The notes under the pieces: generated by a model
What the model was told of the DNA's origin: nothing
The model's input: only the letters and a program-made list of their open reading frames with translations
Database searches by the model: none
IMG/VR virus record: IMGVR_UViG_3300015201_000002
Reading direction: 5' to 3' (one strand)
Origin: a virus
Length of the DNA: 33,313 nt
Part shown: positions 10,233-31,990 of the stretch, one piece after another
Layout: each line of letters starts with the position of its first letter
Numbering within the stretch: the first letter of the stretch is position 1
Program-made: the position numbers and the translations under genes

Positions 10233-10306
10233 GGTTTCCCTTTCTAGGAAAGTAGGGAGGCTACCGGAATTAGTAGCCCCTACCTCGGAATTCTCTTCTT
10301 CTAGAC

Positions 10307-10333
10307 TTTTCTGACTAACAACAGTAGTCCTAG
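10307..10333 (+). repeat. 27-bp motif copy 1 (TTTTCTGACTAACAACAGTAGTCCTAG). The extended 41-mer 10301..10341 is the exact reverse complement of 15675..15715.
   Basis: Read directly. It lies between the 81-aa gene and the lipoprotein gene. Confidence 0.95.
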
Positions 10334-10342
10334 TAACTAGGC

Positions 10343-10588
10343 TCAGTTCCAGAGACTATACTCGTCACAAGTCTTGCGAAGCTGGATGACGTGAGAGCAG
10401 TTAACAGCCGTTCCGTGTTCGCTGCACTTGCTCATACCGTTGCGGAAGACTCGTACAGGAACTTCACGAACGATTCCGATGACCTGGATTGCCCAGCGGC
10501 GACGGTAGATAGCAGTCACAGTTTTGCGACCAACAGCCAGGATCTCAGTACGAAGCTCAGCAGGCTTACGGGTAGCTACAGCGTTCAT
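10343..10588 (-). CDS. Hypothetical basic protein (81 aa) with three Cys and His residues; function unknown
   Basis: AGGGAGAA lies 6 nt upstream of the ATG. My hand count is 130 G+C in 246 nt (about 53%), against about 42% in a sampled 100 nt of the portal gene. It has its own sigma70-like promoter and is flanked on both sides by the 27-bp motif. Confidence 0.7.
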   Translation of the reverse strand: MNAVATRKPAELRTEILAVGRKTVTAIYRRRWAIQVIGIVREVPVRVFRNGMSKCSEHGTAVNCSHVIQLRKTCDEYSLWN

Positions 10589-10624
10589 GATGTTCTCCCT
10601 GGTTCATCGGGGGTGTTGAGAAGA

Positions 10625-10653
10625 ACATTAGTAGCTTGGAGAGCTGCTGTCAA
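10625..10653 (-). promoter_or_regulatory. Sigma70-like promoter for the 81-aa gene / lipoprotein pair
   Basis: On the minus strand: TTGACA (10653..10648), a 17-nt spacer, then TAATGT (10630..10625). It sits about 35 nt upstream of the ATG at 10588. Confidence 0.5.
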
Positions 10654-10686
10654 GTCTTAATCCTAGGATCTTGCCTGTTTCAAAAG

Positions 10687-10713
10687 TTTTCTGACTAACA
10701 ACAGTAACCCTAG
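10687..10713 (+). repeat. 27-bp motif copy 2 (TTTTCTGACTAACAACAGTAACCCTAG), the same subtype as copy 4
   Basis: Read directly. On the minus strand it lies about 35 nt upstream of the -35 box of the 81-aa gene promoter. Confidence 0.95.
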
Positions 10714-10763
10714 ATAGGTACCTGGAGAAGGTAGGGGTTGCTTCATCTGTGTTAGCTCTAGAC

Positions 10764-10790
10764 TTTTCTGACTAACAACATTAACCCTAG
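10764..10790 (+). repeat. 27-bp motif copy 3 (consensus sequence)
   Basis: Read directly. It ends exactly at the stop codon (10791..10793, minus strand) of the regulator gene. Confidence 0.95.
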
Positions 10791-11219
10791 TTACTTACTC
10801 TTGGGGTTGTTAAGTTCTATGTACCAGTCATAGCCCATACTCCTATCCTTAGGGTTATGGTATTTACGGGTTACCAATCCTAGTTCAAGAAGTTTGTGAA
10901 GGTATCTGAATACTGATACAGCAGGTACTCCTGTTTCTTCCGCTAATAGATCAACTGTCTTATCGATCCTGTAGGTATCAGGTCCATAAACTGTTAAAAC
11001 CCTTTCCAGGAATCTTAGAGAGTTATTCTCTCTTGATGTAGCTCTTTGGAGAGGGTCACGGTATTTTAAGTCTCTTTGCTTGACTGCATTCATACTGTAT
11101 CTATGGTAAGTGCAGTATTTACAAACTCTTGTGAGGTTATCCTTTGTTTTGCTTGAGAAATAAAACTCTGATACAGGCTTCTCCGTTTGACAAGGGTAGC
11201 AAAACTTTACTAGTGCCAT
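10791..11219 (-). CDS. Zinc-ribbon plus winged-helix DNA-binding regulator (142 aa), repressor-like by position
   Basis: N-terminal C-x2-C...K-x4-EF...C-x2-C (FCYPCQTEKPVSEFY...VCKYCTY). C-terminal wHTH-like LLAEETGVPAVSVFRYLHKLLELGLVTRK. It is transcribed divergently from the early rightward operon. Confidence 0.65.
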   Translation of the reverse strand: MALVKFCYPCQTEKPVSEFYFSSKTKDNLTRVCKYCTYHRYSMNAVKQRDLKYRDPLQRATSRENNSLRFLERVLTVYGPDTYRIDKTVDLLAEETGVPAVSVFRYLHKLLELGLVTRKYHNPKDRSMGYDWYIELNNPKSK

Positions 11220-11335
11220 TATAAAACTCCTTAAAATAATTTGAGAAATTGCATGATTCTCAGGTACACCATACCGATAGTAAAGACATCGGCTTTTATA
11301 TGTCGTAAAAGGACTTGAGGCTAGGAGAAATAATT

Positions 11336-13270
11336 ATGGCTTTTGGAAAAGATAGCACTACAAGAAATGTAAACTTTACCAACACCAATGAGATTGAGGG
11401 TTGGTTCAGACCTTATACAATGATGGGTGTTGGTGCTGCTGTAGTATTTGGATTTGTAGCAATTATGAGAATTGCTATGTGGATTAATTTATACTTTTTC
11501 CATAATCTACCTGCCACAAACTTCTGGACATGGGGATTAACTGTTTGTGGAATTATTGCATGTGTCTTCGTGTATAAGTTCTATCACCGTAGAGGCGAGC
11601 AGGGTAATGAAGTTCTTATCAGGTTTCATCCTACAGTAAGTACAGCATTAGGATTTATTTGGATGATCTTAGCTTTCAACGATCAGCCCAACGCATGGAT
11701 GTTCTCACAAGTAAGTTTAGGCTTATTCATTTTAGGTGGAGGACTTGTTGCCTTTACTTGGATGGCAAGGCGTTGGAGTTTCAAGAGTTTCCAACCAGCA
11801 GAACCTAAAACTAATGAGTGGGAATTGCTAGGATTTGGTGAGACTTCAGCTATGGGCAATGTTCCTGTTCCTGGTGGACGTAAAATTAAGTTGAAGCTAG
11901 ACCCTAAAGTTACTACATCAGATTTGCTTGACAAGATTACTTTAATCGCTAAGAAGTTCAAAACTAGTTACAAAAAGATTCGTATTCAGGAAGATTTGGA
12001 AGATCCTAACTTCGCTTACGTAACTGTAATGGAGCAGGAGCCGTTTGCAGAGGCAGTGTTATGGAAGGGACCTGATAAGCCAGGAACTAGTATTGCAGAA
12101 CCTATTGAGTTTGCTACTTATGATACAGGCGAAAGAGCCAATCTTTATTTATCAGGTAAGGATGGTGAATCTTGTTTCTCATGGTTAACTACTGGAATGC
12201 CGGGAACAGGTAAGACTTATGCATGGCAGGTAATTTATGGATCTGTTCTAGCTCGCAAGGAAGTTAGTTTAGTATGGATCGATGCATCAAAGGATTATGC
12301 ATCGGCTATGCCTCTACTATCTGGAATCGAATGGTTTGCAGGTAGTCTAGAGTATGCTCATAAAGTAATTGCTAATGTAGATAGGTCAATTGAGTCTCGC
12401 ATGAAGTACCTTGCTAGTAAAGGTTATCAGTATTGGAAGCCTGGTTGTGGAATTAATTTCATCATCCTTCACGTTGAGGAGGCATCTGATTTCCTGGATA
12501 CTGAATCTGAGAAGGTCTTGAAGCATATTTCTAGAGCAGGTCGTTCTGCTGGCGTTATCGTTATTTATTCTCTTCAGCGTGCCACTAACGATAATATGCC
12601 TACCTCTCTACGAAACAACCTAGAAGGAAAGATGGCATTCAAGGTTGGTAAGAAAAGCGAGCGTCAGTTCTGTCTTTCAGATAAGCAGCTTGGGGCAGGT
12701 GCAGCACCAGAAACAATTGCAGTTAACGGTGGGTTCTATTTTGACAGTAGGTATGAACCATCTGAATTAGCTGGAAATATGGTACGTGGAGATAAGATGG
12801 ATGAGCTTGAATTAGAGCGCTCTGTGGATATGAGTGCAGGATTCAGAACACCTCTTGATAATGTTACAGCTTCAGCATTTGGTCAGCCTTATGAAAAGTA
12901 CCGTGCTGAAGTTATGAACAATGCAACTGAATGGCAGAAGGTTCGTATGAATCGAGGTTCACATAATTCTGAAAGTATGAAAACTGGATATGAAAATATG
13001 AACGATGACACAGCAGAGTATGAAAAGTATGAAAAGCCTGTGAAAAGCAATCGTTCACAGAATTTGAATAGTGATCCTGCTGCTGAGGCTGAGAAGCTTT
13101 GGAATTTCATAGTTACTATGGATTTCGAGAAGTTCACAAAGTCTGAAATCTACAAGCCATACATGGCAGCTACAGGAAAGAGCAAGTCTTGGATTTGTTC
13201 ACAGATTGACAAGTGGGAAAACGATGGAAAGATCGCTAACGAAGGATCAGGTAAGTATTCCATCAAGTAA
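11336..13270 (+). CDS. Membrane-anchored FtsK/SpoIIIE-family DNA translocase-like ATPase (644 aa)
   Basis: ATG 11336 follows AGGAGAAATAATT. Four N-terminal hydrophobic helices are present. Walker A is GMPGTGKT and Walker B-like is NFIILHVEEA. RAGRSAGVIVIYSLQRATNDNMPTSLRNNLEGKMAFKV matches the FtsK pattern gRa.Gi....tQrp....i....r.n...ri.f.v. The C-terminus is winged-helix-like. Confidence 0.85.
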   Translation: MAFGKDSTTRNVNFTNTNEIEGWFRPYTMMGVGAAVVFGFVAIMRIAMWINLYFFHNLPATNFWTWGLTVCGIIACVFVYKFYHRRGEQGNEVLIRFHPTVSTALGFIWMILAFNDQPNAWMFSQVSLGLFILGGGLVAFTWMARRWSFKSFQPAEPKTNEWELLGFGETSAMGNVPVPGGRKIKLKLDPKVTTSDLLDKITLIAKKFKTSYKKIRIQEDLEDPNFAYVTVMEQEPFAEAVLWKGPDKPGTSIAEPIEFATYDTGERANLYLSGKDGESCFSWLTTGMPGTGKTYAWQVIYGSVLARKEVSLVWIDASKDYASAMPLLSGIEWFAGSLEYAHKVIANVDRSIESRMKYLASKGYQYWKPGCGINFIILHVEEASDFLDTESEKVLKHISRAGRSAGVIVIYSLQRATNDNMPTSLRNNLEGKMAFKVGKKSERQFCLSDKQLGAGAAPETIAVNGGFYFDSRYEPSELAGNMVRGDKMDELELERSVDMSAGFRTPLDNVTASAFGQPYEKYRAEVMNNATEWQKVRMNRGSHNSESMKTGYENMNDDTAEYEKYEKPVKSNRSQNLNSDPAAEAEKLWNFIVTMDFEKFTKSEIYKPYMAATGKSKSWICSQIDKWENDGKIANEGSGKYSIK

Positions 13271-13382
13271 GTCCTAGGCAGTACACCAAGGACCAGTTCT
13301 AGTTAGTTCTAGGCTGGTCCTTGGTTGGTTCTAGGGCAGTCCTAGGCATGGTTTTAGGCGAGTCCTAGGGGTAGTTCTAGGG
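13271..13382 (+). repeat. Array of eight direct GTYCTAGG(C/G) repeats with about 11-bp phasing
   Basis: Copies start at 13271, 13296, 13306, 13328, 13339, 13351 (degenerate GTTTTAGGC), 13362 and 13374. Spacings are 25, 10, 22, 11, 12, 11 and 12 bp. The array begins 1 nt after the stop codon of the FtsK-like gene. Confidence 0.8.
13285..13325 (+). terminator. Stem-loop after the FtsK-like gene, embedded in the repeat array
   Basis: ACCAAGGACCAG (13285..13296) pairs with CTGGTCCTTGGT (13314..13325), giving a 12-bp perfect stem. Two GTTCTAG repeats lie in the loop. The downstream T-tract is weak. Confidence 0.55.
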
Positions 13383-13582
13383 TGTTTTGCCTGGTCACAG
13401 TAATAAGAGAGCGGGACAGAGATTTCTGTCGTACACATAGCAGTATCGTTGAGAGAAATCCTTATGCATATATGCCTGCCAGGATAGTCCTACAGCCCGT
13501 TCAGAGCCACGCTGAGAGTTGTTTTAATACTTCTGGTAGTCCTGTCAGGCTAGAGTTTAAAACCGATTAGAGAGGAAATAAA

Positions 13583-13768
13583 ATGCCATATTCAACTGAG
13601 TATTCCTGCAACCATTCCACCAAGAATCAAGAGGATAATAACCCTAAGCATAAATGTTCTGCTGGATATGTTCCAGAGGATGATTCTTGTCCTGTTCATC
13701 CCCTCTGGCACGCAGCTATCAAGAGAGAACTAGCTAAGGAAGTTACTTGGATGGATGAACTAGAGTAG
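13583..13768 (+). CDS. Hypothetical small Cys/His-containing protein (61 aa)
   Basis: AGAGAGGAAATAAA precedes the ATG. It is the only credible ORF in the 13271..14397 region. Confidence 0.45.
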   Translation: MPYSTEYSCNHSTKNQEDNNPKHKCSAGYVPEDDSCPVHPLWHAAIKRELAKEVTWMDELE

Positions 13769-13778
13769 CTTCTAGCTT

Positions 13779-14090
13779 TTCACACATGTGTGAAGGATAT
13801 GAAAAGTGTGAAAACAAATCTGTGAAGAGTTCATACTGTATGAAGAGATATGTGAAATGTATGAAAACACCAGTTCACAGAAGTGTGAAGATTTCACACC
13901 TCGTAGAATCTATGAATTCACACTTTTCATGTCCTTCATAGTTTTCATACATCTGTGAATTGAGGTTTTCACACTCTGGGACTACTCTTCACACAACTAT
14001 GAAAAGATGTTACACTGTATGAAGAACAAGCAAAACTGTGTAAGCAGTTGAGCTTAAAGTGTGAAATGTGAAAATTCATCTATGAAAAAG
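13779..14090. repeat. Dense heptamer (TRTGAAR) iteron field; probable replication origin or other multi-site protein-binding locus
   Basis: I counted about 15 forward and 11 reverse copies of T[G/A]TGAA[A/G]. Examples include the 16-bp palindrome TTCACACATGTGTGAA (13779..13794), TGTGAAGATTTCACA (13884..13898), TATGAATTCACAC (13911..13923) and TGTGAAATGTGAAAA (14060..14074). No ORF is present and the region is AT-rich. Confidence 0.85.
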
Positions 14091-14260
14091 GATGCCAATC
14101 CTAGACGTAGAAAAATTTTCAGACTTTTATCGAGATTCGGGTAACTTCGTGGCTGTTGTGACCGATAGGTAAGAGTGAAGCATTAAAATAGATTCGCACT
14201 CTCCAAGGGTGGTTCCGGAAGAGAGTAAACATAGCTCCTCATTTCTGGGTGCGATGGTTT

Positions 14261-14290
14261 AGGGTCCATTGGCTTTGGCTGATGGACCCT
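14261..14290 (+). terminator. Stem-loop with a partial U-tract immediately upstream of the 517-aa ORF (terminator or attenuator)
   Basis: AGGGTCCAT (14261..14269) pairs with ATGGACCCT (14282..14290), giving a 9-bp stem and a 12-nt loop, followed by TTGGGTTTCT. Confidence 0.5.
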
Positions 14291-14397
14291 TTGGGTTTCT
14301 ATCCGATGCTTCTAAACAGTAAAGAATTTTGCAAGTACCAAACCCAAACCATACGTACAGAGGTTTACCACCTCATAATCAGAATAAGGTCGTAGCT

Positions 14398-15951
14398 ATG
14401 AAAAACACTAAGCTTTCTCGTGAAGAGAATGTAGCCAAGGGCTATGCAGTAATTAATCCTAATGGGATTTATAGAAGACCTCCTGCAATGAACCAGGAGA
14501 TGAGAGATAAAGTTGACTCAGGTTACGTGCAGGTAAATGCATGGGGAAAGATCGAGTTGACAGATAAGTATGATCTCGAAATTAACGCTATTCAGAAGCC
14601 TACCCTAAAAAATCCTCTATTCACTGGCGATCAGGTTGATATTATGTTCGGCTCAATTCTATTGCAGGATATGCAAGAGTTGAAAAGCCAAATGGTAGCT
14701 CAATTCCCTGAAAGTGTGAATTCCGTTGTTTACCTTATCGATAAGAAGCCTGTAAAGCTGGCAGCTATGGAAGCTAAGCTAAACAGAATGTTCAACAACT
14801 ACTGGACACCTGAACGTAAAGCTATCGCTAAGAACAACCAGCACATGCAGTACGCTTATGAAGTTGCTGTACTTAAGCTAGAGCAGGCTAAAAGCAATAC
14901 CCTAGCTAAAATCGCTAAAGCTGACTCTTACCTACAGAGTGCTATTGAAAGAAAGAACAACCCTGAACTAGCAAAGAGTCAGAACAAGATTGCAGCCATC
15001 ATTGAAGATAAGAAGCGTTCATCTTCTCAGAAGGTTGAAGCTATCTTTGAAGGTGATAAGTCAGCAGGTGCTAGCCACAATGCTAAGAGGACTATTGTTC
15101 TTGCTATTGCTGGTTTCCTTGGTAAGGGATTGGATAAGGATTCTATCTTTGCTGAGATCGTTAAGATGGATGAATTCTCAGCCCTATCCTACAAGCGTCC
15201 TGAAAAGGAATTCAGCAGGATCTTTAATGATACTACCTCTTGGATTCATCACAAGAACCAGATTAAGGTATTCTATGATCTTCTTGGCTGGATCTCTGAA
15301 GGAATGAACAACACCAAGATTCGTACCAAGACTAAGGATCTCTTCTACGTCCTTATGACTATGGTTGCATTGCATCAGGCTAAGGATAATGACTCAAGAG
15401 GACTAGTAGCCTTCAGGTATCTATCTAGGGTTACTGTTGTTAGTCAGAAAAGTCTAGAGCTAGATCCTCGCTCTCTGGGAGAGAAGTTCTCAGCTTATGC
15501 AAAACTTGGCTACATCAACTATGAAAAAGGTATTCAGGGAGGAATCAGTTCTCGTGCAGGATTGAAGCCTTATACATCTGAGCTAAGCCTGGAAGATGCT
15601 ATCAAGGCTAAAGAAGCAATCCTCAATCTCTTCCAGGACTCACCTTTCTACACTGAACTAGAGGCTGTATTGAACCTAGTTACTAGGACTACTGTTGTTA
15701 GTCAGAAAAGTCTAGCTACTCCTGCTTACAACGACTCTGATCTTGAGAATACTGTATTTGACCTGCTAAATGTATTCGTTCCTCTAACTCGTACAGCAGC
15801 AGATGAGAGGATTGCAGAGCGTCAGATTGAAAGTGTGGACTTTGAAGCAGCGAAGGAAAATTACCTTGCTGAGCAGGAGGAAAGAATCAAGGTTCATCTT
15901 GCAACAGGACTAGGCTTTCAGCCATGTAAGAAGGTATTTCTAGCCCCCTGA
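14398..15951 (+). CDS. Hypothetical 517-aa protein; candidate replication initiator / DNA-binding protein by context
   Basis: The long ORF is open from TTG 14329. I prefer ATG 14398 (MKNTKL), which has AAGG 8 nt upstream. It lies next to the iteron field. It contains two in-frame copies of the 27-bp motif, each encoding TVVSQKSL within wHTH-like context (RYLSRVTVVSQKSLELDPRSLGEKFSAYAKLGYINYEKG). No polymerase or helicase motif was seen. Confidence 0.65.
   Translation: MKNTKLSREENVAKGYAVINPNGIYRRPPAMNQEMRDKVDSGYVQVNAWGKIELTDKYDLEINAIQKPTLKNPLFTGDQVDIMFGSILLQDMQELKSQMVAQFPESVNSVVYLIDKKPVKLAAMEAKLNRMFNNYWTPERKAIAKNNQHMQYAYEVAVLKLEQAKSNTLAKIAKADSYLQSAIERKNNPELAKSQNKIAAIIEDKKRSSSQKVEAIFEGDKSAGASHNAKRTIVLAIAGFLGKGLDKDSIFAEIVKMDEFSALSYKRPEKEFSRIFNDTTSWIHHKNQIKVFYDLLGWISEGMNNTKIRTKTKDLFYVLMTMVALHQAKDNDSRGLVAFRYLSRVTVVSQKSLELDPRSLGEKFSAYAKLGYINYEKGIQGGISSRAGLKPYTSELSLEDAIKAKEAILNLFQDSPFYTELEAVLNLVTRTTVVSQKSLATPAYNDSDLENTVFDLLNVFVPLTRTAADERIAERQIESVDFEAAKENYLAEQEERIKVHLATGLGFQPCKKVFLAP
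15425..15451 (-). repeat. 27-bp motif copy 4, inside ORF 14398..15951, encoding RVTVVSQK
   Basis: The + strand reads CTAGGGTTACTGTTGTTAGTCAGAAAA. It shares 30 identical bp (TATCTAGGGTTACTGTTGTTAGTCAGAAAA) with the reverse complement of copy 2. Confidence 0.95.
15683..15709 (-). repeat. 27-bp motif copy 5, inside ORF 14398..15951, encoding TRTTVVSQK
   Basis: The + strand reads CTAGGACTACTGTTGTTAGTCAGAAAA. The 41-mer 15675..15715 is the exact reverse complement of 10301..10341. Confidence 0.95.
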
Positions 15952-16071: not shown

Positions 16072-17091
16072 ATGAAGACTTGTAGTAAATGTAAGCAACT
16101 TAAAAATCTATCTGAGTTCTATAAGTTAGCTCAAAGTAGAGATGGACACAGACCAGATTGCAGGCTTTGTGTAAAGGTTAGAGTTGTTAAGCCTTTCGTT
16201 CCTGATGGACATAAGCGCTGTACTAAATGTGAAGAAGTAAAAGTAATCACAGATTTTCACAAACATAAAAGTAGTTCTGATGGTTATTTTTCACGTTGTA
16301 AGCTTTGTAGGGTAACTAGAAAGCCTGAGACATATGTAAGAACTATTACTAAAGATAAGGCTTCCTGTAGTCGATGTAGAGAAATGAAGCCCTTTGATCA
16401 ATTTCATAAACTAAAAGGTAGAGCTGTTGAAATAGTCGCTAATTGTAAATCTTGTGTAGCAATTAAAGGAAAGATTGAGGCTACAAAGATTACTATTCAA
16501 ATCCCTACTGAGCCTCAATACTGTAATGGTTGTGGTCAATTCAAAGATTTTAGTAAATTCCACAAAAGCTCTCGTCGTAAAACAGGTATTACTACACTCT
16601 GTAAAATTTGTAGGAATGAAAGAAATGTCAAAGCAGGTAACCGAGGTATTCCTGATGATAGTGAATTGCATGGGGAAGTCGTAGGTTATAACAGAGGGTG
16701 TAGATGTCCTCTCTGCATTACGGCTCATAGTATTTATCAAAAGAATGTAAGAGCAAATTATTCACCAGAGCGTAAACGTAGATACTATGAGGCTTCAAAA
16801 CCTAGTTTATCTGCTTCAGGTGCAAGACGAAGAATGCGCACACTAACAGCTATGACTCCGCTAGATATTAAAAAGAGTAAAGCGCACAGGCGAAGAATTA
16901 AAAACAATCCTTGCTATTACTGTGGAATTAAGATTGATAATATGCATGTAGAGCATGTCTATCCTTTAGTTCGTGGAGGAACAGACCATTGGTGGAACTT
17001 AGTGATGAGTTGTCAACCTTGTAACAATGAAAAATACATGAAGACCGGGAAAGAATATGAACAATTCCGTAAGGTTTTATATTTTAATTAA
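16072..17091 (+). CDS. HNH endonuclease with four N-terminal zinc-ribbon repeats (339 aa)
   Basis: The C-terminal sequence CYYCGIKIDNMHVEHVYPLVRGGTDHWWNLVMSCQPCNNEK is a classical HNH core. The GYNRGCRCPLC motif is present. There are four tandem C-x2-C...K...F.K...C-x2-C units. GAAGGAG precedes the ATG. Confidence 0.9.
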   Translation: MKTCSKCKQLKNLSEFYKLAQSRDGHRPDCRLCVKVRVVKPFVPDGHKRCTKCEEVKVITDFHKHKSSSDGYFSRCKLCRVTRKPETYVRTITKDKASCSRCREMKPFDQFHKLKGRAVEIVANCKSCVAIKGKIEATKITIQIPTEPQYCNGCGQFKDFSKFHKSSRRKTGITTLCKICRNERNVKAGNRGIPDDSELHGEVVGYNRGCRCPLCITAHSIYQKNVRANYSPERKRRYYEASKPSLSASGARRRMRTLTAMTPLDIKKSKAHRRRIKNNPCYYCGIKIDNMHVEHVYPLVRGGTDHWWNLVMSCQPCNNEKYMKTGKEYEQFRKVLYFN

Positions 17092-17113: not shown

Positions 17114-17206
17114 AATTGCCTCTTTCATGACGATAATACCTTTGAGCGTAAAAAGAATTAAGCCCTCTTTGCTCATAACCCAACCGTCGTCATGAAAGAG
17201 GCAATT
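17114..17206 (+). promoter_or_regulatory. 20-bp perfect inverted repeat whose right arm contains the ribosome-binding site of gene 17211
   Basis: AATTGCCTCTTTCATGACGA (17114..17133) is the exact reverse complement of TCGTCATGAAAGAGGCAATT (17187..17206). The spacer is 53 nt. The right arm ends 4 nt before ATG 17211 and contains GAAAGAGG. Confidence 0.6.
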
Positions 17207-20167: not shown

Positions 20168-20941
20168 ATGGTTATGACAGATTCAAAAGTTAACAATAGC
20201 TGGGCTGACCCTTACAGTACAGATTATCGATCTGACATTACTCAGCTTATTGAAAATGTGGCTACCAGTAAAACAACCCTCGCTAAGAATGTATGGCATA
20301 TAAATGTAGAAAGGGAGGATTTGATAAGTGAGCTATATTGCTATCTGCTCAGTAAGCCTAGTCTAATTGAGGATGGAAAAGTTCCCTCAAAGATTTTGCA
20401 TAATAGAGCTAGCAATTTCTGCTTTAAACAGCGCCTTGATAAAGGCGCTGCTATTGTAGGTACAGATACTCTACATGATATGCTTCTAGAATTTAATAAA
20501 CTTCCTACATACATTCTTGATGTTCTTTATGGTCCTGTATTTGCTAAGGCTGGTAAGCCTGTAGGTACTTACCTTGAAATTATCGAGCAGGAATACAAGT
20601 ACAAAAACAAGGTTGTAGGAGCTAGCAATAGGAAAACCCTAGCAAGAGCAGTAGCGAGACTAGCAGAGGTGATTTCAGGTATTATGGTAGGTACACCAGA
20701 TAGCTTTAATTCGTTAACCTATGCTGCTAATGTACCTAGTTATGAAATGCAGGATAATAGTGATGACTCCTTAGATTCTACTTTTGCTCCCTTTACAGCA
20801 ATTTACACATGCACTAATAATCATTCCTACAGAATCAACACAGGAGCTAAGCCTGACACTACAAGAATTGGGCAGAATCATCTACTAGGATATTACAAAT
20901 GTAAATGTGGAGAAGTCTTAGAGTTGGACAGCAGAAACTAA
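20168..20941 (+). CDS. Hypothetical protein (257 aa); possible ECF-sigma-like transcription factor with a C-terminal zinc ribbon
   Basis: EDLISELYCYLL....KILHNRASNFCFKQR loosely fits sigma region 2 (eDl.Qe....l.....ia.N...d..R). LPTYILDVL....NRKTLARAVARLAEV loosely fits region 4. The C-terminus has C-x...H and CKCG. The start could be 20168 or 20174. The sigma assignment is weak. Confidence 0.55.
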   Translation: MVMTDSKVNNSWADPYSTDYRSDITQLIENVATSKTTLAKNVWHINVEREDLISELYCYLLSKPSLIEDGKVPSKILHNRASNFCFKQRLDKGAAIVGTDTLHDMLLEFNKLPTYILDVLYGPVFAKAGKPVGTYLEIIEQEYKYKNKVVGASNRKTLARAVARLAEVISGIMVGTPDSFNSLTYAANVPSYEMQDNSDDSLDSTFAPFTAIYTCTNNHSYRINTGAKPDTTRIGQNHLLGYYKCKCGEVLELDSRN

Positions 20942-21628: not shown

Positions 21629-21803
21629 GGTTGTAGAGATTACTGATTACGATGTTCATGCTGTTATTCCAGCAAAGTCACTACCAGCAGCAATCGAGGC
21701 TATCAGTCATGTTGAAGGCGTTGTTTTCTCAGTTAAAAAGCATGAAGGTAAAGGACAGACACCTACTTGCAGAACAACTACGAGAGGATCAACTAATGTA
21801 TGA
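21621..21803 (+). CDS. Hypothetical small protein (60 aa)
   Basis: The ATG overlaps the upstream stop (ATGCCTGA), consistent with coupled translation. Confidence 0.5.
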   Translation: MPEVVEITDYDVHAVIPAKSLPAAIEAISHVEGVVFSVKKHEGKGQTPTCRTTTRGSTNV

Positions 21804-21996
21804 AGATGTCTTTATTGCTGTTAATGCTCTAGTTCCAGCCTATACAGATAACCTACTTATTGAATTCAAGAAGGCTGGAATCAGTGATGAGCTTAATAGG
21901 TCTCATTTAATCCTCTACGCTTTAAGTATAGTTAATGAGATGGTTGAAACTAAAAGATTTGAAGATATCACTAAGGGGTTCAGTTCAGAGCAATAG
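21796..21996 (+). CDS. Hypothetical small protein (66 aa)
   Basis: This is an internal ATG of track ORF 21652..21996. GAGAGGATCAACTA precedes it, and it overlaps the stop of 21621..21803 (ATGTATGA). The longer 21652 start would overlap the previous gene out of frame for 150 nt. Confidence 0.55.
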   Translation: MYEDVFIAVNALVPAYTDNLLIEFKKAGISDELNRSHLILYALSIVNEMVETKRFEDITKGFSSEQ

Positions 21997-22023
21997 TTTT
22001 CTGACTAACAACATTATCCCTAG
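21997..22023 (+). repeat. 27-bp motif copy 6 (TTTTCTGACTAACAACATTATCCCTAG)
   Basis: It starts on the base after stop codon TAG 21994..21996 and lies 27 nt before ATG 22050. Confidence 0.95.
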
Positions 22024-22049: not shown

Positions 22050-22292
22050 ATGTCAGAATTCATAAACACAGTAAAGCCGAATGAGCTAGTAAACCTTGAT
22101 GCTGTAGAGGCAGTATTTATTAAGAATCCTCCTACAGTCGATATGAGTAAACTAGGTAGAACTAAAGATGAGATTGATGCGAATGTGGCTAGAATTGCTA
22201 AATCATTTAGAGTAGTAGCAAGAGGAACATCAACGTACATTTTATTTGAAGGAACTCTAGAGCAGTGTAAGGATTATCTAGATACAATCTAA
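22050..22292 (+). CDS. Hypothetical protein (80 aa)
   Basis: GAAGGTAAGGTATT precedes the ATG. A small hairpin CCCTGA-TGTA-TCAGGG (22302..22317) follows the gene. Confidence 0.65.
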   Translation: MSEFINTVKPNELVNLDAVEAVFIKNPPTVDMSKLGRTKDEIDANVARIAKSFRVVARGTSTYILFEGTLEQCKDYLDTI

Positions 22293-22321
22293 AGTAATAA
22301 GCCCTGATGTATCAGGGTGTT

Positions 22322-22396
22322 GCTGATGTAGTCCAATTGGTAGGAGACAAGAGCTTTAAACCCTCTACAGTGCCAGTTCGAATCTGGTCATCAGCA
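22322..22396 (+). tRNA. tRNA (75 nt, no encoded CCA). The best fold gives anticodon UAA, which reads UUA/UUG Leu codons, but with a short variable arm.
   Basis: The acceptor stem GCTGATG/CATCAGC has 7 bp, and the discriminator is A. The T arm is GCCAG-TTCGAAT-CTGGT. The D arm is GTC(C)...(A)GAC with GG in the loop. The anticodon stem AGAGC/CCTCT has 4 bp plus a C-C mismatch. The loop is TTTAAAC, with TAA at 22357..22359. Confidence 0.8.
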
Positions 22397-22558
22397 CTTA
22401 AGCAAGTACTAATTATCTTATTAGATATCTCCTTTCGGATTATATTTGTGAGTTTGGTTGCCTCAGTACTTGCTTATTAAATATAAAGCCCTAGCACATA
22501 AGATGTATCTCGTCATAGAGAACTAGGGCACTTAATAAAACATAAGGAGGTGAACAAT

Positions 22559-24658: not shown

Positions 24659-24685
24659 TTTTCTGACTAACAACATTAACCCTAG
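24659..24685 (+). repeat. 27-bp motif copy 7 (consensus)
   Basis: It starts 2 nt after the terL stop TAG 24654..24656, between terL and the portal gene. Confidence 0.95.
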
Positions 24686-26258: not shown

Positions 26259-26261
26259 AAG

Positions 26262-26288
26262 TTTTCTGACTAACAACATTAACCCTAG
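26262..26288 (+). repeat. 27-bp motif copy 8 (consensus)
   Basis: It starts 3 nt after the portal stop TAG 26256..26258. It is followed by TATATAA. Confidence 0.95.
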
Positions 26289-27891: not shown

Positions 27892-28088
27892 CCGATAAGT
27901 AATAACAATAGACTTCTTTCCGTGTCGGAAAGAGACTCCGCAATTAGCGCATAGGATAATCCGAGTCGGGCTATTCTAGCAAGATTGCATTTCAGCCCTT
28001 TGTCAGGGCGTTTTAAATTAATTCGCCAATATTGGCAATGGGCTATATGAATGCCCATATCCAGTGCCTAATACTAAGGAGATTTATA

Positions 28089-29048
28089 ATGGCACGTGAA
28101 ACTTATGAAAACTGGATTCCTGATGAGGTTGCTGCCTCTGTTATCCAGGTAGCAGACAAGGGTTCTGCTGTAGAGCTAGCTGCTCGTACTGAAGTAATGG
28201 CATCAGACCTTAAGCGTGTTCCTCGTTCAGGTGGATTCACTGTAGGAACTGTAGCTAAGGGTGGTACTTATTCAGAGTCTACTTCAACCAACGATTACGT
28301 AGAGCTTATTGCTCGTAAGATCGGTGGAATTGAGCGTATCGCAGTTGAGGATCTTGTAGATACTACAATCGATCCTCTAGCTGTAAAGCGTGTAGATGCT
28401 GCTTACGCTATGGGTAAGTTCTTCGACAACGCAGCTCTAGGAACTAAGGTTGTTGCTAACGGTACTACTGTTCCATTCAACTCAGTTTACTACACAGTAA
28501 CTCAGGCTGATGCAGCAGTTGGATATACCGCTAACGCTAACCTAAAGGCTACTGCTGGTGCTCTAACTTACGCAAAGCTTGTAGAAACTATTAGCGCTGT
28601 TGGTGCTGGTGACTGGGGTTCTGACCTAGTAATCATCGCTCACCCAACCTTCCGTTTCGAGACTCTTGGAATTACAGGAAACAACGTTCCTCTTATTGAC
28701 AATGCTCTTACTGGTGGATGGGAAGGACGTACCCTACTAGGTGTTCCTGTTCTATGGAGCCAGGGTGCAAAGGTTTCTGCTACTGCATCTGGTGCTTCTG
28801 GTTCTGGTACTCCTGGTGTTGCTGGTACAAACGGTAACCCTCTATTGATCGTTGCTAACCGCAGCCTTCTAATTAAGGGTGTTGCTAACCTTCCTGGTGT
28901 ATCTAATGGTGCTCCAGGATTCAGCTTCCAGGACGTAAACGATGGTGCTGGTTACCTTACTGATGAAAGCTTGATGAAAGCTGCAATGAGGCGAGGATTT
29001 GCTGTAGGAAACGTAAACGGTGTAGCTGTACTTGAGCGCACTGCCTAA
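28089..29048 (+). CDS. Major capsid protein (319 aa)
   Basis: TAAGGAGATTTATA precedes ATG 28089. Position after the scaffold gene, a long structured leader, strong codon bias (GCT/GGT/GTT/ACT) and a strong hairpin immediately downstream all fit a major capsid protein. The HK97 fold is inferred from gene order only. Confidence 0.85.
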   Translation: MARETYENWIPDEVAASVIQVADKGSAVELAARTEVMASDLKRVPRSGGFTVGTVAKGGTYSESTSTNDYVELIARKIGGIERIAVEDLVDTTIDPLAVKRVDAAYAMGKFFDNAALGTKVVANGTTVPFNSVYYTVTQADAAVGYTANANLKATAGALTYAKLVETISAVGAGDWGSDLVIIAHPTFRFETLGITGNNVPLIDNALTGGWEGRTLLGVPVLWSQGAKVSATASGASGSGTPGVAGTNGNPLLIVANRSLLIKGVANLPGVSNGAPGFSFQDVNDGAGYLTDESLMKAAMRRGFAVGNVNGVAVLERTA

Positions 29049-29058
29049 TCAAAATATA

Positions 29059-29116
29059 AGGTAGGTACTAGGGTTAATGTTGTTAGTCAGAAAACTTTTG
29101 ATCCTAGTACCTACCT
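29059..29116 (+). terminator. 14-bp perfect hairpin after the capsid gene, carrying motif copy 9 in its loop
   Basis: AGGTAGGTACTAGG (29059..29072) pairs with CCTAGTACCTACCT (29103..29116). The loop is 30 nt, and CTTATTCC follows. Confidence 0.65.
29068..29094 (-). repeat. 27-bp motif copy 9 (consensus, inverted)
   Basis: The + strand reads CTAGGGTTAATGTTGTTAGTCAGAAAA. It lies within the hairpin after the capsid gene. A 32-bp stretch is identical to copies 8 and 10. Confidence 0.95.
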
Positions 29117-29140
29117 CTTATTCCTTAAGGAGGAATTGAA

Positions 29141-29521
29141 ATGGCTAAGGACGTTAAGCCTAAGGCAAATGCACCTCTAACAGAGGCTAAGCTAAACGAA
29201 AACAAGACTACTGTTGATTATGTAGCTGCTCGTTCAACTGATGGTTCAGAAGGTACACGTTACAAGAAGGTATTTGTTATTCAGGCTGTTCCTTCATGGG
29301 ACGAAATCAAGTTTGATCACGAACCTAATCTTGTAGGTACTCTTTCTGAGGCACTTGTACGAGGACTTCACCCGCTAGGTGAGGCTACCTTTGAAGGCGC
29401 AGAAGTTCAGGCAGATGGTGTAAGCGTTGAGCTTACTTATTCTGTCAACGTAAAGCCTGTAGAGGACAACCCTACTGGTGCAGAAACTCTAGCTCCTTCA
29501 GAATCAAAGCACATTAACTAA
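29141..29521 (+). CDS. Hypothetical head-associated protein (126 aa)
   Basis: AAGGAGGAATTGAA precedes the ATG. The call rests on its position between the capsid and connector genes. Confidence 0.6.
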   Translation: MAKDVKPKANAPLTEAKLNENKTTVDYVAARSTDGSEGTRYKKVFVIQAVPSWDEIKFDHEPNLVGTLSEALVRGLHPLGEATFEGAEVQADGVSVELTYSVNVKPVEDNPTGAETLAPSESKHIN

Positions 29522-29537
29522 TTGAGAGGCGGCTGTT

Positions 29538-29999
29538 ATGGCTTGGTTTACAAATAAGGCTGAGGCAGCCGCTCTTATTTCTGTCGATCCTTCAACAATT
29601 ACTGATGCTAATTACGCTATGGCAATTTCTGCTGTAGAGGCATTCATTAATCGTGAAGTTGAGGATATTCCCTCTATCGATACTAGGGATTTCCGCAGAA
29701 TTAAGAAGGCTATGGCATGGCAAATGCTATTCTTAGCTGATCAGCCTGATTATGGATATAGGACTTTGATTGAATCTGCTTCCGCTGATGGTCAGCAATT
29801 TACTATGGTAAATGCTGCTGGTGGAGGTGTAGATATTGCAGCTCAAATGCTCCATCCTCTAACTATTAGGTATTTACGTAACCTTTCATGGAAGCGTAAT
29901 CCTGTAACTGAGGATCAGGCAGCATTGCTTGCACAAGCATATAGGAATTTCTTGAATGAATCTTCCGATAGTTATACACGTTGGGAGAAGCTTTCATGA
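29538..29999 (+). CDS. Head-tail connector / adaptor protein (153 aa)
   Basis: Position and an N-terminal pattern typical of gp6-like connectors (..A.AALISVDPSTITDANYAMAISAVEAFINREV). Confidence 0.6.
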   Translation: MAWFTNKAEAAALISVDPSTITDANYAMAISAVEAFINREVEDIPSIDTRDFRRIKKAMAWQMLFLADQPDYGYRTLIESASADGQQFTMVNAAGGGVDIAAQMLHPLTIRYLRNLSWKRNPVTEDQAALLAQAYRNFLNESSDSYTRWEKLS

Positions 30000-30331
30000 G
30001 AAGCCTAGCTAATACTACTGTTCAAATTGAGGGTGCAATAGTTCTGGATGAGTATGGTGATCCGGTAGGAGATTCAGATCCTATTGGTAATCCTATTCCA
30101 GTCTCTCTTATCGAGAAAAGGCAGTTGGTTGCAGAACCTTCAGATAATAAAACAATAACTTACGTTCGATATGCTGTAATGAGATGCAAACCTAATTCAG
30201 GAATCGAACAGGATCAAATCGTAAGGGATCTCAAGACTGATATTCGTTGGGTTGTAGCTGAGGTTACTCAGTTATTCAATCCGATGACAGGTATGGATCT
30301 AAGATGTCAATTAAATAGGATATCTAACTGA
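29996..30331 (+). CDS. Head closure / head-tail joining protein (111 aa)
   Basis: ATG 29996 overlaps the upstream TGA (ATGA). The call rests on position. Confidence 0.5.
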   Translation: MRSLANTTVQIEGAIVLDEYGDPVGDSDPIGNPIPVSLIEKRQLVAEPSDNKTITYVRYAVMRCKPNSGIEQDQIVRDLKTDIRWVVAEVTQLFNPMTGMDLRCQLNRISN

Positions 30332-30400
30332 TGACTAAAGAATTCGACAAGAATTCTGCAATACTTTTTCCCGTAACTGACGAAGGCGGGGTGATTAACA

Positions 30401-30784
30401 ATGGCAAAAGATAAGTTTGAACTAGACCTTAATGGCATAGTTCAAATCGAGCACAGCTCAGCAGATGCAGTAAAACTCATTCTTGAGGATATTGCTGATG
30501 ATGCTAGGAGATTAGTTCCTAAGGATACTATGGAGCTACATGACTCTATTGAAGTTGTGCACAGAGAAGGCGAACTAACTGGATCTGTTGTAGTAGGTAC
30601 CGATCATTGGGCTCCTACTGAATATGGTTCTGAGCCTCACATTATCGAAGCTAATGGCGATTACTCTCTATCCGATGGAACAGGAGAGTATTACGGCAGA
30701 ATTGTTAATCACCCTGGAACGCCTGAGCAACCTTTCATGAGACCAGCTCTCTATAAGAAAAGGAAGCTTAAAGGTTCTCCCTAA
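30401..30784 (+). CDS. HK97 gp10-like neck / tail-completion protein (127 aa)
   Basis: PKDTMELHDSIEV....TEYGSEPH....HPGTPEQPFMRPAL matches the gp10-family pattern (.dTG.L..si......yvE.G.....a.PFlrPA). Confidence 0.7.
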   Translation: MAKDKFELDLNGIVQIEHSSADAVKLILEDIADDARRLVPKDTMELHDSIEVVHREGELTGSVVVGTDHWAPTEYGSEPHIIEANGDYSLSDGTGEYYGRIVNHPGTPEQPFMRPALYKKRKLKGSP

Positions 30785-30829
30785 AGTCAGCTACGGGATA
30801 TTTTTATGTCCAGAAAGGTAGGTGAATTA

Positions 30830-31306
30830 ATGGCAGATTTATTGCCAAACGCAGAGACGGTAGTAGTAAGTTATCTTAAGGCTATTAATGTTATTGGTAA
30901 TAATGTTGCTACTGATCTGCCTGGTCCTGATGGAAGTGGTAATTACGCTTGGCAAGATACCGGTTTCATTCGAGTAGGTAGCATTTTTGAAGATATTAAT
31001 TACTACACAACCAGGCGTGAAGCTGTAGCAACTCTTGAATGTATTGCATTTACTCCAAATGCAAGTAAGCCACCTTATCCTAAAGCTAATCTTATTGCTG
31101 AGAAGGTTGTTAATTCAACGTTACCTAACCAGCATTTTAATGTGCTAAAGGGGAAGTTGGAATTACCTTCTAGGTATTATCCTGCAAGTGTATTAGAAGC
31201 AACAATAGCCGTAGGTCCAAGACGAGACTTTAGGCTAGTACAAGATAATCGTGCCATCTATATGGTCGATCTTAGAATTATATGGGTAGCTCTACCCAAC
31301 TCCTAA
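30830..31306 (+). CDS. Tail terminator-like protein (158 aa)
   Basis: I prefer ATG 30830 (AAAGGTAGGTGAATTA upstream) to 30806. It is the last gene before the major tail protein. Confidence 0.5.
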   Translation: MADLLPNAETVVVSYLKAINVIGNNVATDLPGPDGSGNYAWQDTGFIRVGSIFEDINYYTTRREAVATLECIAFTPNASKPPYPKANLIAEKVVNSTLPNQHFNVLKGKLELPSRYYPASVLEATIAVGPRRDFRLVQDNRAIYMVDLRIIWVALPNS

Positions 31307-31326
31307 CATGAAATGAGGAATTAACT

Positions 31327-31911
31327 ATGGCTAACGCAGGAAACTTGCTAGTCTCTAATGCAAAGATTTGGGTAGCTCCTTATGGTTCAACCCTTCCAGC
31401 ATTCACTGAGACTGCTCTTCTAGCTAACCCTGCTTCACCTTTCGTAAGTCCTGGCTTTACTAATGGTGGAGTTACTTGGAATGTCGAAAATGACTTTACT
31501 GAGTATCGTGCAGATCAGGTAAAGAACTCTCTTGGTGCCGCTAATACAGACCAGACAATTACTGTAGAGATGACACTAGCTGAGGTAACTCTAGCTAACC
31601 TTGCATATGCTCTTGCTGATGGAACTGTAGATGCAACTCTTGATACAAACAAGATCACTAAGTTCACACCAGCAGCATCAAATGATTTCCAGATGCCTTA
31701 TATGACTCTGATCCTAGATACAGATGCTCCATCTGGTCTACAGGGTGTTAACAAGCGTCGTAGAATCATCTTCAAGCGTTGCCTTCCTACATCAGGTACA
31801 GAACTTGCTTATGGTCGTGAGGACCAGCAGGGATTACCTGTAACTTGGACTGTATACGGTATTGATGAGACTACTGCACTATACGAAATCTACGAGCAGA
31901 CTGCTGCTTAA
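31327..31911 (+). CDS. Major tail protein (194 aa)
   Basis: GAGGAATTAACT precedes the ATG. The gene sits immediately before the chaperone pair, has strong codon bias and is followed by a strong terminator. Confidence 0.75.
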   Translation: MANAGNLLVSNAKIWVAPYGSTLPAFTETALLANPASPFVSPGFTNGGVTWNVENDFTEYRADQVKNSLGAANTDQTITVEMTLAEVTLANLAYALADGTVDATLDTNKITKFTPAASNDFQMPYMTLILDTDAPSGLQGVNKRRRIIFKRCLPTSGTELAYGREDQQGLPVTWTVYGIDETTALYEIYEQTAA

Positions 31912-31920
31912 GTTTAATTA

Positions 31921-31954
31921 TTGCAGGGCTATTCATACTTGGGTAGCCCTGCAA
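31921..31954 (+). terminator. Stem-loop terminator after the major tail gene
   Basis: TTGCAGGGCTA (31921..31931) pairs with TAGCCCTGCAA (31944..31954), giving an 11-bp perfect stem and a 12-nt loop. Confidence 0.75.
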
Positions 31955-31963
31955 GTATACGTA

Positions 31964-31990
31964 CTAGGGTTAATGTTGTTAGTCAGAAAA
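31964..31990 (-). repeat. 27-bp motif copy 10 (consensus, inverted)
   Basis: The + strand reads CTAGGGTTAATGTTGTTAGTCAGAAAA. It lies 10 nt after the major-tail terminator and 32 nt before ATG 32022. Confidence 0.95.

Follow-up and report, generated by a model that had tools for sequence, protein, structure and literature searches.

The phage and its relatives

The window analysed here is the whole stretch of 33,313 nucleotides (nt) of IMG/VR virus record IMGVR_UViG_3300015201_000002, and its subject is an asymmetric motif of 27 bp that occurs in it ten times; we call the phage W. The motif is a genome-wide repeat of two parts that evolves in concert, keeps its place at the same gene junctions in related phages, and is linked to the gene of a 517-amino-acid (aa) protein. 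Phage W, a small phage from soil, is siphovirus-like, with 33.2 kb and 41% G+C, and its recognisable genes comprise the tape measure (an open reading frame, ORF, of 845 aa), tail genes, a leftward three-gene operon, and genes for an FtsK/HerA-like ATPase, an HNH endonuclease, a DUF2637 protein, the terminase subunits (terS and terL), portal and capsid. Since the window begins and ends with an exact 123-bp direct repeat (1-123 and 33191-33313), the assembly is complete and circular (or circularly permuted), with a true length of ~33,190 bp; the contig of phage D, listed below, has such a terminal repeat likewise.

No GenBank phage gave a megablast match to the window, and the closest portals, those of Streptomyces and Microbacterium phages, which by this protein are the nearest cultured relatives, are 27-30% identical. 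IMG/VR and metagenomes, on the other hand, yielded a small family of related contigs of 33-34 kb:

H (L099), L005, L006, L008, L081 and L093, from various metagenomes: 95-98% nucleotide identity to W
Phage B, 3300048625_000195: protein identity to W 97% for capsid, 89% for portal and 65% for terL
Phage D, 3300012891_000001: structural proteins 64-90% identical to those of W
Phage C, 3300037882_001071: main structural proteins 23-36% identical to those of W; gene order different

Genomes B, C and D were assembled completely and form, together with W, a set of 47 motif copies (10 in W, 10 in B, 13 in C and 14 in D), all of them intergenic except those in the 517-aa gene. The motif is therefore conserved in relatives, three of which carry 10-14 copies, many at the same junctions as in W.

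Ten copies of the motif

A search for the 27-mer with at most three mismatches returned exactly the ten copies that an initial annotation of the sequence had listed. They are numbered in coordinate order:

W1: 10307..10333, plus strand; subtype AGTAGTC; between the leftward genes 9705..10232 and 10343..10588; absent in phage B
W2: 10687..10713, plus strand; subtype AGTAACC; in the gap between 10343..10588 and 10791..11219
W3: 10764..10790, plus strand; 3' end touches the stop of the leftward zinc-ribbon/winged helix-turn-helix (wHTH) gene 10791..11219; syntenic in B and D
W4: 15425..15451, minus strand; within the 517-aa gene; SRVTVVSQKS, helix 2 of the predicted winged helix
W5: 15683..15709, minus strand; within the 517-aa gene; TRTTVVSQKS
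W6: 21997..22023, plus strand; directly after the TAG stop of 21652..21996; syntenic in B and D
W7: 24659..24685, plus strand; 2 nt past the terL stop and 37 nt before the portal start
W8: 26262..26288, plus strand; 3 nt past the portal stop; syntenic in B and D
W9: 29068..29094, minus strand; after the capsid gene, in the loop of hairpin 29059-29116 (RNA free energy, dG, -30.9; z -8.2)
W10: 31964..31990, minus strand; after the major tail gene, just downstream of hairpin 31921-31954

All ten copies agree in their first 17 nt, and in dinucleotide-preserving shuffles the 27-mer found no match and the 17-mer a mean of 0.15. Pairs of copies share long exact stretches (41 nt for W1/W5, 37 nt for W9/W10 and 33 nt for W3/W7), and W7-W10, the copies of the late operon, share an identical stretch of 29 nt. 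The unit is no palindrome, and seven of the ten copies read CTAGG..AAAA along transcription.

The placements described in the initial annotation were likewise confirmed. Copies W6, W7 and W8 start 0, 2 and 3 nt downstream of TAG stops, W3 abuts the stop of the regulator gene 10791..11219, and W1-W3 occupy both intergenic gaps of the leftward operon. W9 lies in the loop of a 19-bp hairpin and W10 just past one of 15 bp, neither of which has a T-tract. Copies W4 and W5 fall within ORF 14329/14398..15951 and are translated there. TAG recoding or an oddity of CTAG was considered and set aside; stop usage is ordinary, and CTAG was observed 194 times against ~198 expected from a second-order Markov model.

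A conserved and an exchangeable half

Directly abutting tandem copies put the length of the unit at 33-36 bp. Its 3' half, (C)TAACAACAGTAATCCTAG(TA), is common to the whole family. The 5' half, in contrast, is uniform within one genome and unrelated between lineages; upstream of all 5' halves stands AAAAG or TAGAC/TAGAG. The 5' halves are:

W, H and C: TTTTCTGAC
Phage B: TTAGCGGCAC
Phage D: GGTTTTACA; GGTT(T/G)TACA

Overall relatedness does not predict the 5' half. W and B are close, with capsids 97% identical, but their 5' halves differ, whereas the distant pair W and C shares one: phage C has the exact 17-mer in its 13 copies, while its other DNA matches W only in short patches of 65-74%. 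A dispersed set of sites has thus changed its identity between near-identical phages, and this block-wise, lineage-specific replacement of one half of a site is a new point.

Among the relatives with 95-98% identity, the first 17 nt showed no change (0/136), and positions 18, 21 and 22 switch among a few alleles at four times the rate of the flanks (7/80 vs 19/960, p = 0.002). Tandem arrays of two to four units occur, with spacings of 33-89 bp and without helical phasing. Internal hairpins in the variable half were considered and rejected, as they reach 5 bp at most and are often mismatched. In the array of D-type units after the tail gene of phage D (~30330-30360 of the re-oriented contig, L003:3355), there is a single W-type copy (TTTTCTGACTAACAACCTATGTCCTTG), which is evidence of an exchange of units between lineages.

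The 517-aa protein and its predicted winged helix

In an all-against-all comparison of proteins, the 517-aa protein (540 aa from an upstream TTG) was the sole outlier with respect to the distance between W and C. The two versions are 61% identical overall and 64-83% identical over most of the C-terminal third, whereas the main structural proteins (tape measure, tail, terL, portal and capsid) reach only 23-36%. Before about alignment column 300 the W protein is nearest to that of B, and after it to that of C; the best DNA match between W and C outside the motif copies is likewise a segment of the gene's C-terminal third. Judged from these alignments, the 5' half of the motif follows the 3' third of the 517-aa gene, which lies just downstream of an iteron-rich putative origin and carries one or two motif copies in W, B, C, D, L104 and L098. 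Its features in the window are:

Gene of the 517-aa protein: 14398..15951, plus strand; 540 aa from TTG at 14329; proposed reader of the motif
Predicted winged-helix codons: 15325..15564, plus strand; helix 1 at 15325-15387, helix 2 at 15412-15444 (overlaps W4)
Recognition helix 3 codons: 15466-15504, plus strand; PRSLGEKFSAYAK
Wing codons: 15514-15564, plus strand

The family is nearly isolated. Searches of PHROGs, Pfam and PDB, the last by sequence and by profile, gave no match to the 517-aa protein, and none to known replisome organisers or initiators. Only four close homologues were present among 5.8 billion sequences, and a profile search of 1.8 billion representatives added five more distant ones, which cover the C-terminal 290 residues; in total, the large protein libraries yielded four close and six distant homologues. 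A structure model of the full-length protein was of no use (predicted local distance difference test, pLDDT, 56; no meaningful Foldseek match). For the last 248 residues, AlphaFold, run on an alignment of nine sequences that includes the distant homologues, gave a model with pLDDT 83.6 and a predicted template modelling score (pTM) of 0.76, in which a winged helix is followed by a long helix. The order of elements in the model is that of a winged helix (helix 1, strand, helix 2, helix 3, beta-hairpin wing), with these residues of the modelled fragment:

Helix 1, 41-61; strand, 66-67; helix 2, 70-80; helix 3, 88-100
Wing, 104-120 (strands 104-107 and 117-120); long C-terminal helix, 178-234

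The best Foldseek matches were MhqR, PadR, LmrR, MarR and OhrR, none below E 0.19, and the best local superposition was 4.7-5 A over ~80 residues; the sole Pfam signal was Rrf2 (E = 0.039), for the one homologue P0009. Since the Foldseek matches are not significant, we treat the fold as probable rather than established, and the C-terminal third of the protein is, by this model, probably a winged helix.

Helix 2 of the model, FRYLSRVTVVS, is mostly encoded by the in-gene copy W4, and the recognition helix follows directly. The predicted recognition helix reads (S/G)LGEKF(S/T)AY in W and C, KTGRKLEAY in B, SIANRFKAY in D and NMNKRLTTY in L104, so that, at the level of the aligned residues, it covaries with the type of motif that the genome carries.

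These observations lead us to favour, tentatively, the reading that the unit of ~33-36 bp is a two-part, cis-acting site read by a phage DNA-binding protein, most likely the 517-aa protein; we consider it a serious possibility, though somewhat short of probable. Here the initial annotation was right in part. It had offered a dispersed set of operators, which is the reading that we favour, and had named as candidate readers the zinc-ribbon/wHTH regulator 10791..11219 or the 517-aa protein; the former has lost ground, having no detectable homologue in C, which has 13 copies, and being 63% identical between W and D, whose motif types differ.

Another trans-acting factor could nevertheless read the repeat, be it the zinc-ribbon/wHTH protein, the 146-aa protein with the HPILxWN signature or an unrecognised protein of phage or host, in which case the tie to the 517-aa gene would be mere linkage. 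The stop of the zinc-ribbon/wHTH gene is touched by W3 and by its counterparts in B and D, its product has weak matches to the wHTH domains of MarR, IclR and TrmB, the 146-aa family has members in each of the four genomes and groups W and C in one subtype, and a factor shared throughout the phage family might read the conserved 3' half. The distribution of the zinc-ribbon/wHTH gene given above argues against this, and so does the 146-aa family, which does not discriminate (B and D 33% identical with different motifs, W and C 35% identical with the same one). A host element is opposed by the 17-mer, which is not repeated in any of 185,579 species-representative genomes. Reading by such another factor therefore seems unlikely to us.

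Besides the zinc-ribbon/wHTH protein, four proteins were considered as readers and rejected: the FtsK-like ATPase, since phage H has an allele 36% identical to that of W with the motif unchanged, and a separate cluster of 8-mers covaries with it instead; the 215-aa protein, whose versions in W and B are 79% identical despite the different motifs of these phages; the 257-aa protein 20168..20941, which has no detectable homologue in C; and the 146-aa protein, whose pattern of identities does not fit.

Synteny and orientation of the copies

Copies at corresponding junctions were compared between lineages, with orientation given relative to local transcription:

terL/portal site: W, B, C, D and L104; forward; 2 nt past the terL stop in W, B, C and D, overlapping the stop in L104
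Portal/next-gene site: W, B and D; forward
Site before the small gene, tRNA and terS block: W, B and D; forward
Major tail/next-gene site: W, B and D; reverse
Site between the 1072-aa tail protein and the next gene: B, C and D; reverse; plain terminator in W
Capsid/next-gene site: reverse in W, forward in D, plain hairpin in B; mixed
Stop of the zinc-ribbon/wHTH gene: W, B and D; ambiguous in B and D, where the genes converge

The copy between terL and portal has kept its site and orientation in five lineages whose terL identity falls to 32%. W6, upstream of 22050..22292, a tRNA-Leu gene and terS, has counterparts in B and D, W10 has them in these and in the close relatives L005 and L008, and in L104 a copy similar to W3, which in W abuts the stop of the zinc-ribbon/wHTH gene, lies ~70 nt from the stop of the homologous gene. 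The motif is conserved far above its surroundings and holds the same junctions even where terL is 32% identical; it is under selection, and the sequence-specific function first suspected from its conservation in W alone is borne out.

Relative to transcription, 15 of the 47 copies are forward, 24 reverse and 8 ambiguous, and the element is consequently not a co-directional one. There is an order to it all the same: in the late operon of all four genomes the forward copies come first and the reverse copies last, and in B, C and D the motif arrows converge near the zone opposite the putative origin.

This split bears heavily on the idea that a phage-specific transcription factor, sigma factor or RNA polymerase uses the motif as its promoter. 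Promoters of the T7 group (T7, T3, SP6) combine a variable 5' block with a conserved 3' block and are uniform per genome. The motif has the same pattern, so that its 5' half would give specificity and its 3' half would serve melting and initiation; moreover, all intergenic copies have a start codon 13 to ~100 nt downstream on one strand or the other. Whichever orientation is chosen, however, 3-7 copies per genome would fire antisense into essential genes, and neither an RNA polymerase nor a sigma domain was detected in the ORFs scanned. The sequence after CCTAG is not conserved, and tandem arrays of up to four copies and copies in hairpin loops would be odd for promoters. Sites of the sigma-70 type were not enriched, nor were the copies among the matches, and known sigma-70 promoters and terminators were discarded as an identity of the motif on the same grounds. 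The initial annotation had pointed to CTGACT-17 nt-TATATA at copy 8, but CTGACT lies in the half that is replaced between sister phages, and TATATA occurs at copy 8 only. We regard a promoter as very improbable.

Structure around the copies and a possible role in RNA

Six of the 47 copies lie in the loops of perfect stems of 11-17 bp that are specific to their loci, while 2.8% of random sites reach at least 8 bp. At the capsid, tail and major-tail sites, the reverse copies are part of, or adjoin, strong structures whose z is -4 to -8, whereas the forward copies after terL and portal are unstructured. The repeat might accordingly act in RNA, with forward and reverse copies pairing into duplexes of 27-36 bp or sitting in loops, and with consequences for processing (e.g. 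by RNase III), attenuation or stability. Forward followed by reverse copies in the late operons would permit nested long-range pairing, the 29-nt identity of W7-W10 would suit it, and pairing would explain why the 5' half is arbitrary and yet uniform per genome. Against this, the transcripts that contain W1-W5 offer these copies no complementary partner, two copies belong to a translated ORF, and the capsid-site copy is inverted between W and D with synteny unaffected. The variation at position 18 is a G/T transversion, which breaks pairing and leaves no wobble; an Rfam scan of the window matched only a tRNA and found no family for the motif; and in L101 and L106, contigs with distant homologues that are described below, a perfect duplex around the beginning of the Rep-like gene would mean the destruction of the mRNA that forms it. 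Action through RNA is, in our judgement, quite improbable.

An ancient site inside the gene, and the direction of copying

A motif copy occupies the W4 codons in W, B, C, D, L104 and L098, and in more distant homologues an unrelated repeat stands at the same place. L104, a syntenic contig of 14 kb, encodes a protein with 32% identity to the 517-aa protein and has a motif of its own, AAACTCGTTCAA|TAACAACGTACATA.CCTWG, of which there are copies close to the zinc-ribbon/wHTH gene, behind the FtsK-like gene, immediately at the terL stop and at the helix-2 codons. The distant homologues P0006 and P0008 are 33-35% identical to the 517-aa protein, and at each there is a perfect inverted pair of 34 or 36 nt. 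L101 and L106 carry homologues from small integrase-bearing phages (51% G+C, as measured for L101) and have perfect inverted pairs of 34 nt (L101:4683-4716 / 5581-5614) and 36 nt (L106:1-36 / 926-961). In each pair the helix-2 codons are the exact place of one arm, and its partner stands 864 or 889 nt upstream of it, in the gap that precedes the gene; the pairs bracket this gap and the first ~170 codons of the distant homologue. Their sequences are quite unlike those of W, but the geometry is the same; L101 and L106 differ from each other at ~10 positions, yet the two arms within each locus are identical. Alternatively, these inverted repeats could be the arms of an invertible segment. Going by these alignments, the site at the helix-2 codons is ancient. 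New here are a founding copy that lies within codons for the predicted helix-turn-helix of a protein family not described before and the retention of this in-gene arrangement in distant homologues whose repeats are unrelated in sequence.

W1 is identical to W5 over 41 nt (98% over 45 nt), including a flank that is coding at W5, and W2 matches W4 at 95% over 41 nt, including the coding flank of W4. Since W1 and W2 thus carry 8-14 nt of conserved coding sequence from W5 and W4, copying ran from the gene outwards, that is, from genic to intergenic position for these two copies. An inverted duplication of a gene segment was rejected as the source of W1-W2, as only 41-45 nt are shared and the 81-aa gene between them is unrelated. 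Copies are also gained and lost as units: W1 corresponds to an empty site in B flanked by CTAG...CTAG, W5 is a clean 30-nt in-frame insertion relative to phage D and the distant homologues, and the capsid and tail sites are filled or empty depending on the genome (at the W9 site, a plain hairpin in B and an oppositely oriented copy in D).

Such dynamics suggest that the repeat might be kept by recombination itself, as a gene-conversion or site-specific element that brings about inversions and the gain or loss of cassettes, with little or no regulation. The discrete gains and losses, the copying of W1 and W2 with their flanks, the rapid switching at positions 18, 21 and 22 and the tandem arrays all fit this, as do the extra genes of phage B directly 5' of copies and the inversion of the structural module of phage C relative to its replication genes. 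The perfect inverted pairs of L101 and L106 resemble the arms of invertons, and L101 encodes a tyrosine recombinase. Neutral or selfish copies, however, would not hold junction, spacing and orientation across lineages with terL 32% identical. Moreover, W has no detectable recombinase, transposase or reverse transcriptase, the unit lacks terminal inverted repeats and shows no consistent target duplication, and the bracketed segment has the same orientation in L101, L102 and L103. The breakpoints of the mosaic between W and H (95-98% identical) do not fall at motif copies. Maintenance by recombination is, we believe, unlikely.

The same breakpoints tell against the proposal of the initial annotation that the copies are linkers for the exchange of modules, for which support is weak and consists of two B-specific genes (27892-28584 and 5593-5934 of the re-oriented contig; L097/L069/L073) directly 5' of motif copies. 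These inserted genes adjoin the copies syntenic with W3 and W6, and one of them encodes collagen-like Gly-X-Y repeats.

A mobile repeat of miniature inverted-repeat transposable element (MITE) or repetitive extragenic palindromic (REP) type was rejected as well, given the lack of a palindrome, a single filled/empty pair with CTAG...CTAG and no host genome with multiple copies. In the 185,579 species-representative genomes (596 Gb), the 17-mer had 50 isolated hits and no genome had several; by our own estimate this is about the level of chance, and a host repeat or uptake sequence is ruled out within these databases.

A proposed mechanism and points against it

On the reading of the motif as a two-part site for the 517-aa protein, we suggest the following course of events. 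The ancestral site would be the one embedded in the helix-2 codons, ~15 nt upstream of the codons for the recognition helix, and because site and recognition helix adjoin, the specificity of the protein and its cognate site would be inherited as one unit of recombination. The copies at gene junctions would be secondary sites, seeded and homogenised by short-patch copying from the in-gene copies, and selection for the resident specificity would also keep the dispersed copies uniform. As the gene adjoins the iteron-rich putative origin and, in most genomes, the nearest copies point towards it, we propose that the 517-aa protein may be an origin-binding or genome-organising protein. Its dispersed sites might then act at operon junctions as protein roadblocks or attenuators, against RNA polymerase and perhaps against replication forks as well. 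The full version, a self-linked specificity cassette in which a site in the protein's own helix-2 codons lets one tract move reader and site together, the in-gene master rewrites the dispersed sites, and roadblocks coordinate forks with late transcription, is possible but to our mind doubtful.

Several points weigh against the 517-aa protein as the reader of the sites. Its binding to the motif copies is something that we infer, and any effect of binding on transcription or replication is conjectural. The fold depends on nine aligned sequences, on Foldseek matches with E of at least 0.19 and on Pfam without a hit (Rrf2, at E = 0.039, being the best). There is essentially one informative pair for the covariation, W and C, and in that pair a recombination tract may simply have carried the in-gene copies along. 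The order of winged helix and long helix points to a dimer, yet the site is asymmetric, and tandem copies at 33 to 89 bp lack helical phasing. In L104, the in-gene copy has a 5' half other than that of its three intergenic copies; in L098, the homology of the gene stops at the motif and the winged helix is missing. Finally, the pattern of orientation is only partly regular, and phage C differs near its origin.

If the mechanism is true, a phage lineage could switch the identity of its genome-wide set of sites as a block. Confirmation would provide a new family of DNA-binding proteins with orthogonal 30-bp sites that are useful as parts, a model for the co-evolution of protein-DNA specificity in mosaic genomes and, possibly, the second case after SPP1 oriR of roadblocks programmed by a phage.

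Comparison with known systems

In its apparent workings the element comes closest to an origin-binding protein whose sites lie in its own gene, by analogy and without homology to a known one. In phage lambda, ori lies inside the O gene. The repeats bound by gp38 of SPP1 are situated within gene 38 (oriL) and, among the late genes, at oriR, where the bound protein has been proposed to stall replication forks (PMC6316719). In W, too, the gene of the candidate reader contains repeated sites, with further sites kilobases away among late genes; each genome has 8-13 further copies in addition to those in the gene, and linkage of the site with the specificity domain would allow their joint exchange. 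Unlike gp38 and O, with which the 517-aa protein has no sequence homology, it would act on 10-14 sites per genome, not on two clusters, and these sites are long (27-36 bp), two-part and in both orientations. Here, moreover, a separate iteron cluster (13770-14100) is the better candidate for the origin, and we infer the binding. That the 517-aa protein would bind these sites and initiate replication has indirect support only: the modelled winged helix, the covariation of its recognition helix with the motif type and the neighbouring iterons.

The stoperators of cluster A phages (L5 gp71 and the TipsytheTRex repressor) are asymmetric and have many intergenic copies, and they make it plausible that one protein reads a two-part site (PMC9283540). 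Like them, the motif is asymmetric and lineage-specific, with many copies in short gaps throughout the genome, often touching stop codons. Stoperators, however, are 13-mers that follow transcription, and their reversal abolishes function; the mixed orientation of the motif (15/24/8) is where the analogy drawn in the initial annotation fails. No integrase or immunity-repressor family was matched by the 20 largest ORFs of W in PHROGs and Pfam, and some copies, unlike stoperators, lie inside the candidate reader's own gene.

Cluster-specific intergenic repeats are a familiar feature of actinophages and T1-like phages, and most of them have no assigned function. They include, in Microbacterium phages, the repeats of clusters EC (18 bp, 12 copies), EI (30 bp, 5 copies) and EG (18-bp inverted repeats), as well as the SAS/ESAS elements of cluster K, the 17-bp palindromes of cluster O and the 21-nt repeats of T1/TLS (PMC7302621, PMC11447400). 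The motif resembles the actinophage repeats, which are cluster-specific, 13-30 bp long and present in 5-30 copies in short gaps that include those at terminase, portal and head genes. By their descriptions, they share the orientation of the genes and keep a fixed distance to the start codon, which the W motif does not, and neither a lineage-specific half swapped as a block nor a founding copy in the gene of a DNA-binding protein has been reported for them. Many phage clusters, those of actinophages above all, have genome-wide intergenic repeats, but a reader or function has been identified for almost none of them outside cluster A; comparative genomics here yields a candidate protein and a candidate recognition helix for one.

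The PeSL cassettes of T4-like phages are short intergenic units beside variable cassettes, for which homologous exchange has been proposed (PMC2839356, PMC4122927). The motif shares with them conserved short units at gene boundaries near variable cassettes. It differs in having no conserved host-type -10/-35 pair, in its mixed orientation and in stems that are locus-specific and limited to 6/47 copies; only the two B-specific cassettes abut copies, and most mosaic breakpoints lie elsewhere.

Fork traps of the Tus-Ter and RTP-Ter type have about ten asymmetric sites of 23-30 bp per replicon, in groups of opposed orientation. The motif likewise has about ten asymmetric sites in opposed groups, with arrows that in B, C and D converge opposite the putative origin. 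However, the copies proximal to the origin in W, B and D point the 'wrong' way for Ter sites, the convergence zone of W misses the antipode of the origin by ~1.5 kb, and there is no homology to Tus or RTP; the likeness is purely positional.

The putative origin and other features of the window

Upstream of the 517-aa gene, at 13770-14100, lies a dense cluster of the iterons TGTGAA(A/G), TATGAAA and TTCACAC, which is likely to be the replication origin; a 51-aa ORF within it (13786..13941) is probably spurious. The iterons of B and L098 are as in W, D has ~30 copies of GTATCAAAA, and C has CGAACAA 16 times at C:8750-9150. Given this separate, dense cluster and the unphased spacing of the 27-mer (33-89 bp), the 27-mer itself is unlikely to serve as origin iterons. 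In W, B, D, L104, L101 and L106, the nearest motif copies point inwards across the origin region and the 5' part of the gene.

Seven 8-mers GT(C/T)CTAGG lie within 110 nt (13272-13381) immediately behind the FtsK/HerA-like gene. Counterparts occupy the same place in C (TTCCTAGG, seven copies) and in B, D and H (G(G)TTTTAGG, seven copies), and in phage H the FtsK-like gene (36% identical to that of W) and the type of 8-mer have been swapped together. The cluster looks like the recognition locus of the translocase and may be likened to the clt/TRS repeats of Streptomyces TraB. Between 8-mers and iterons, a block of ~50 nt at 13470-13525 (atatgcctgccaggatagtcctacagccc...gagccacgctgag) is kept in W, B and D; it had no Rfam match.

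The free-standing HNH endonuclease gene (16072-17091) encodes three or four zinc-ribbon repeats like the N-terminus of 10791..11219. It is absent from B and elsewhere in D, and therefore behaves like a mobile homing-endonuclease gene; neither of its borders has a motif copy. At 17114-17206 there is a perfect 20-bp inverted repeat (AATTGCCTCTTTCATGACGA ... TCGTCATGAAAGAGGCAATT) with arms ~50 nt apart, in the gap preceding the 215-aa gene common to all four genomes.

The tRNA-Leu gene (anticodon UAA; 22322-22397, plus strand) lies between the small gene 22050..22292 and terS and overlaps a 57-aa ORF (22307..22480), which is for this reason probably no gene. Over the whole window, GGCC was observed 0 times against 36 expected and CGCG 0 times against 10, and CATG, GTAC and TATA are depleted; this pattern suggests that host restriction systems are avoided.

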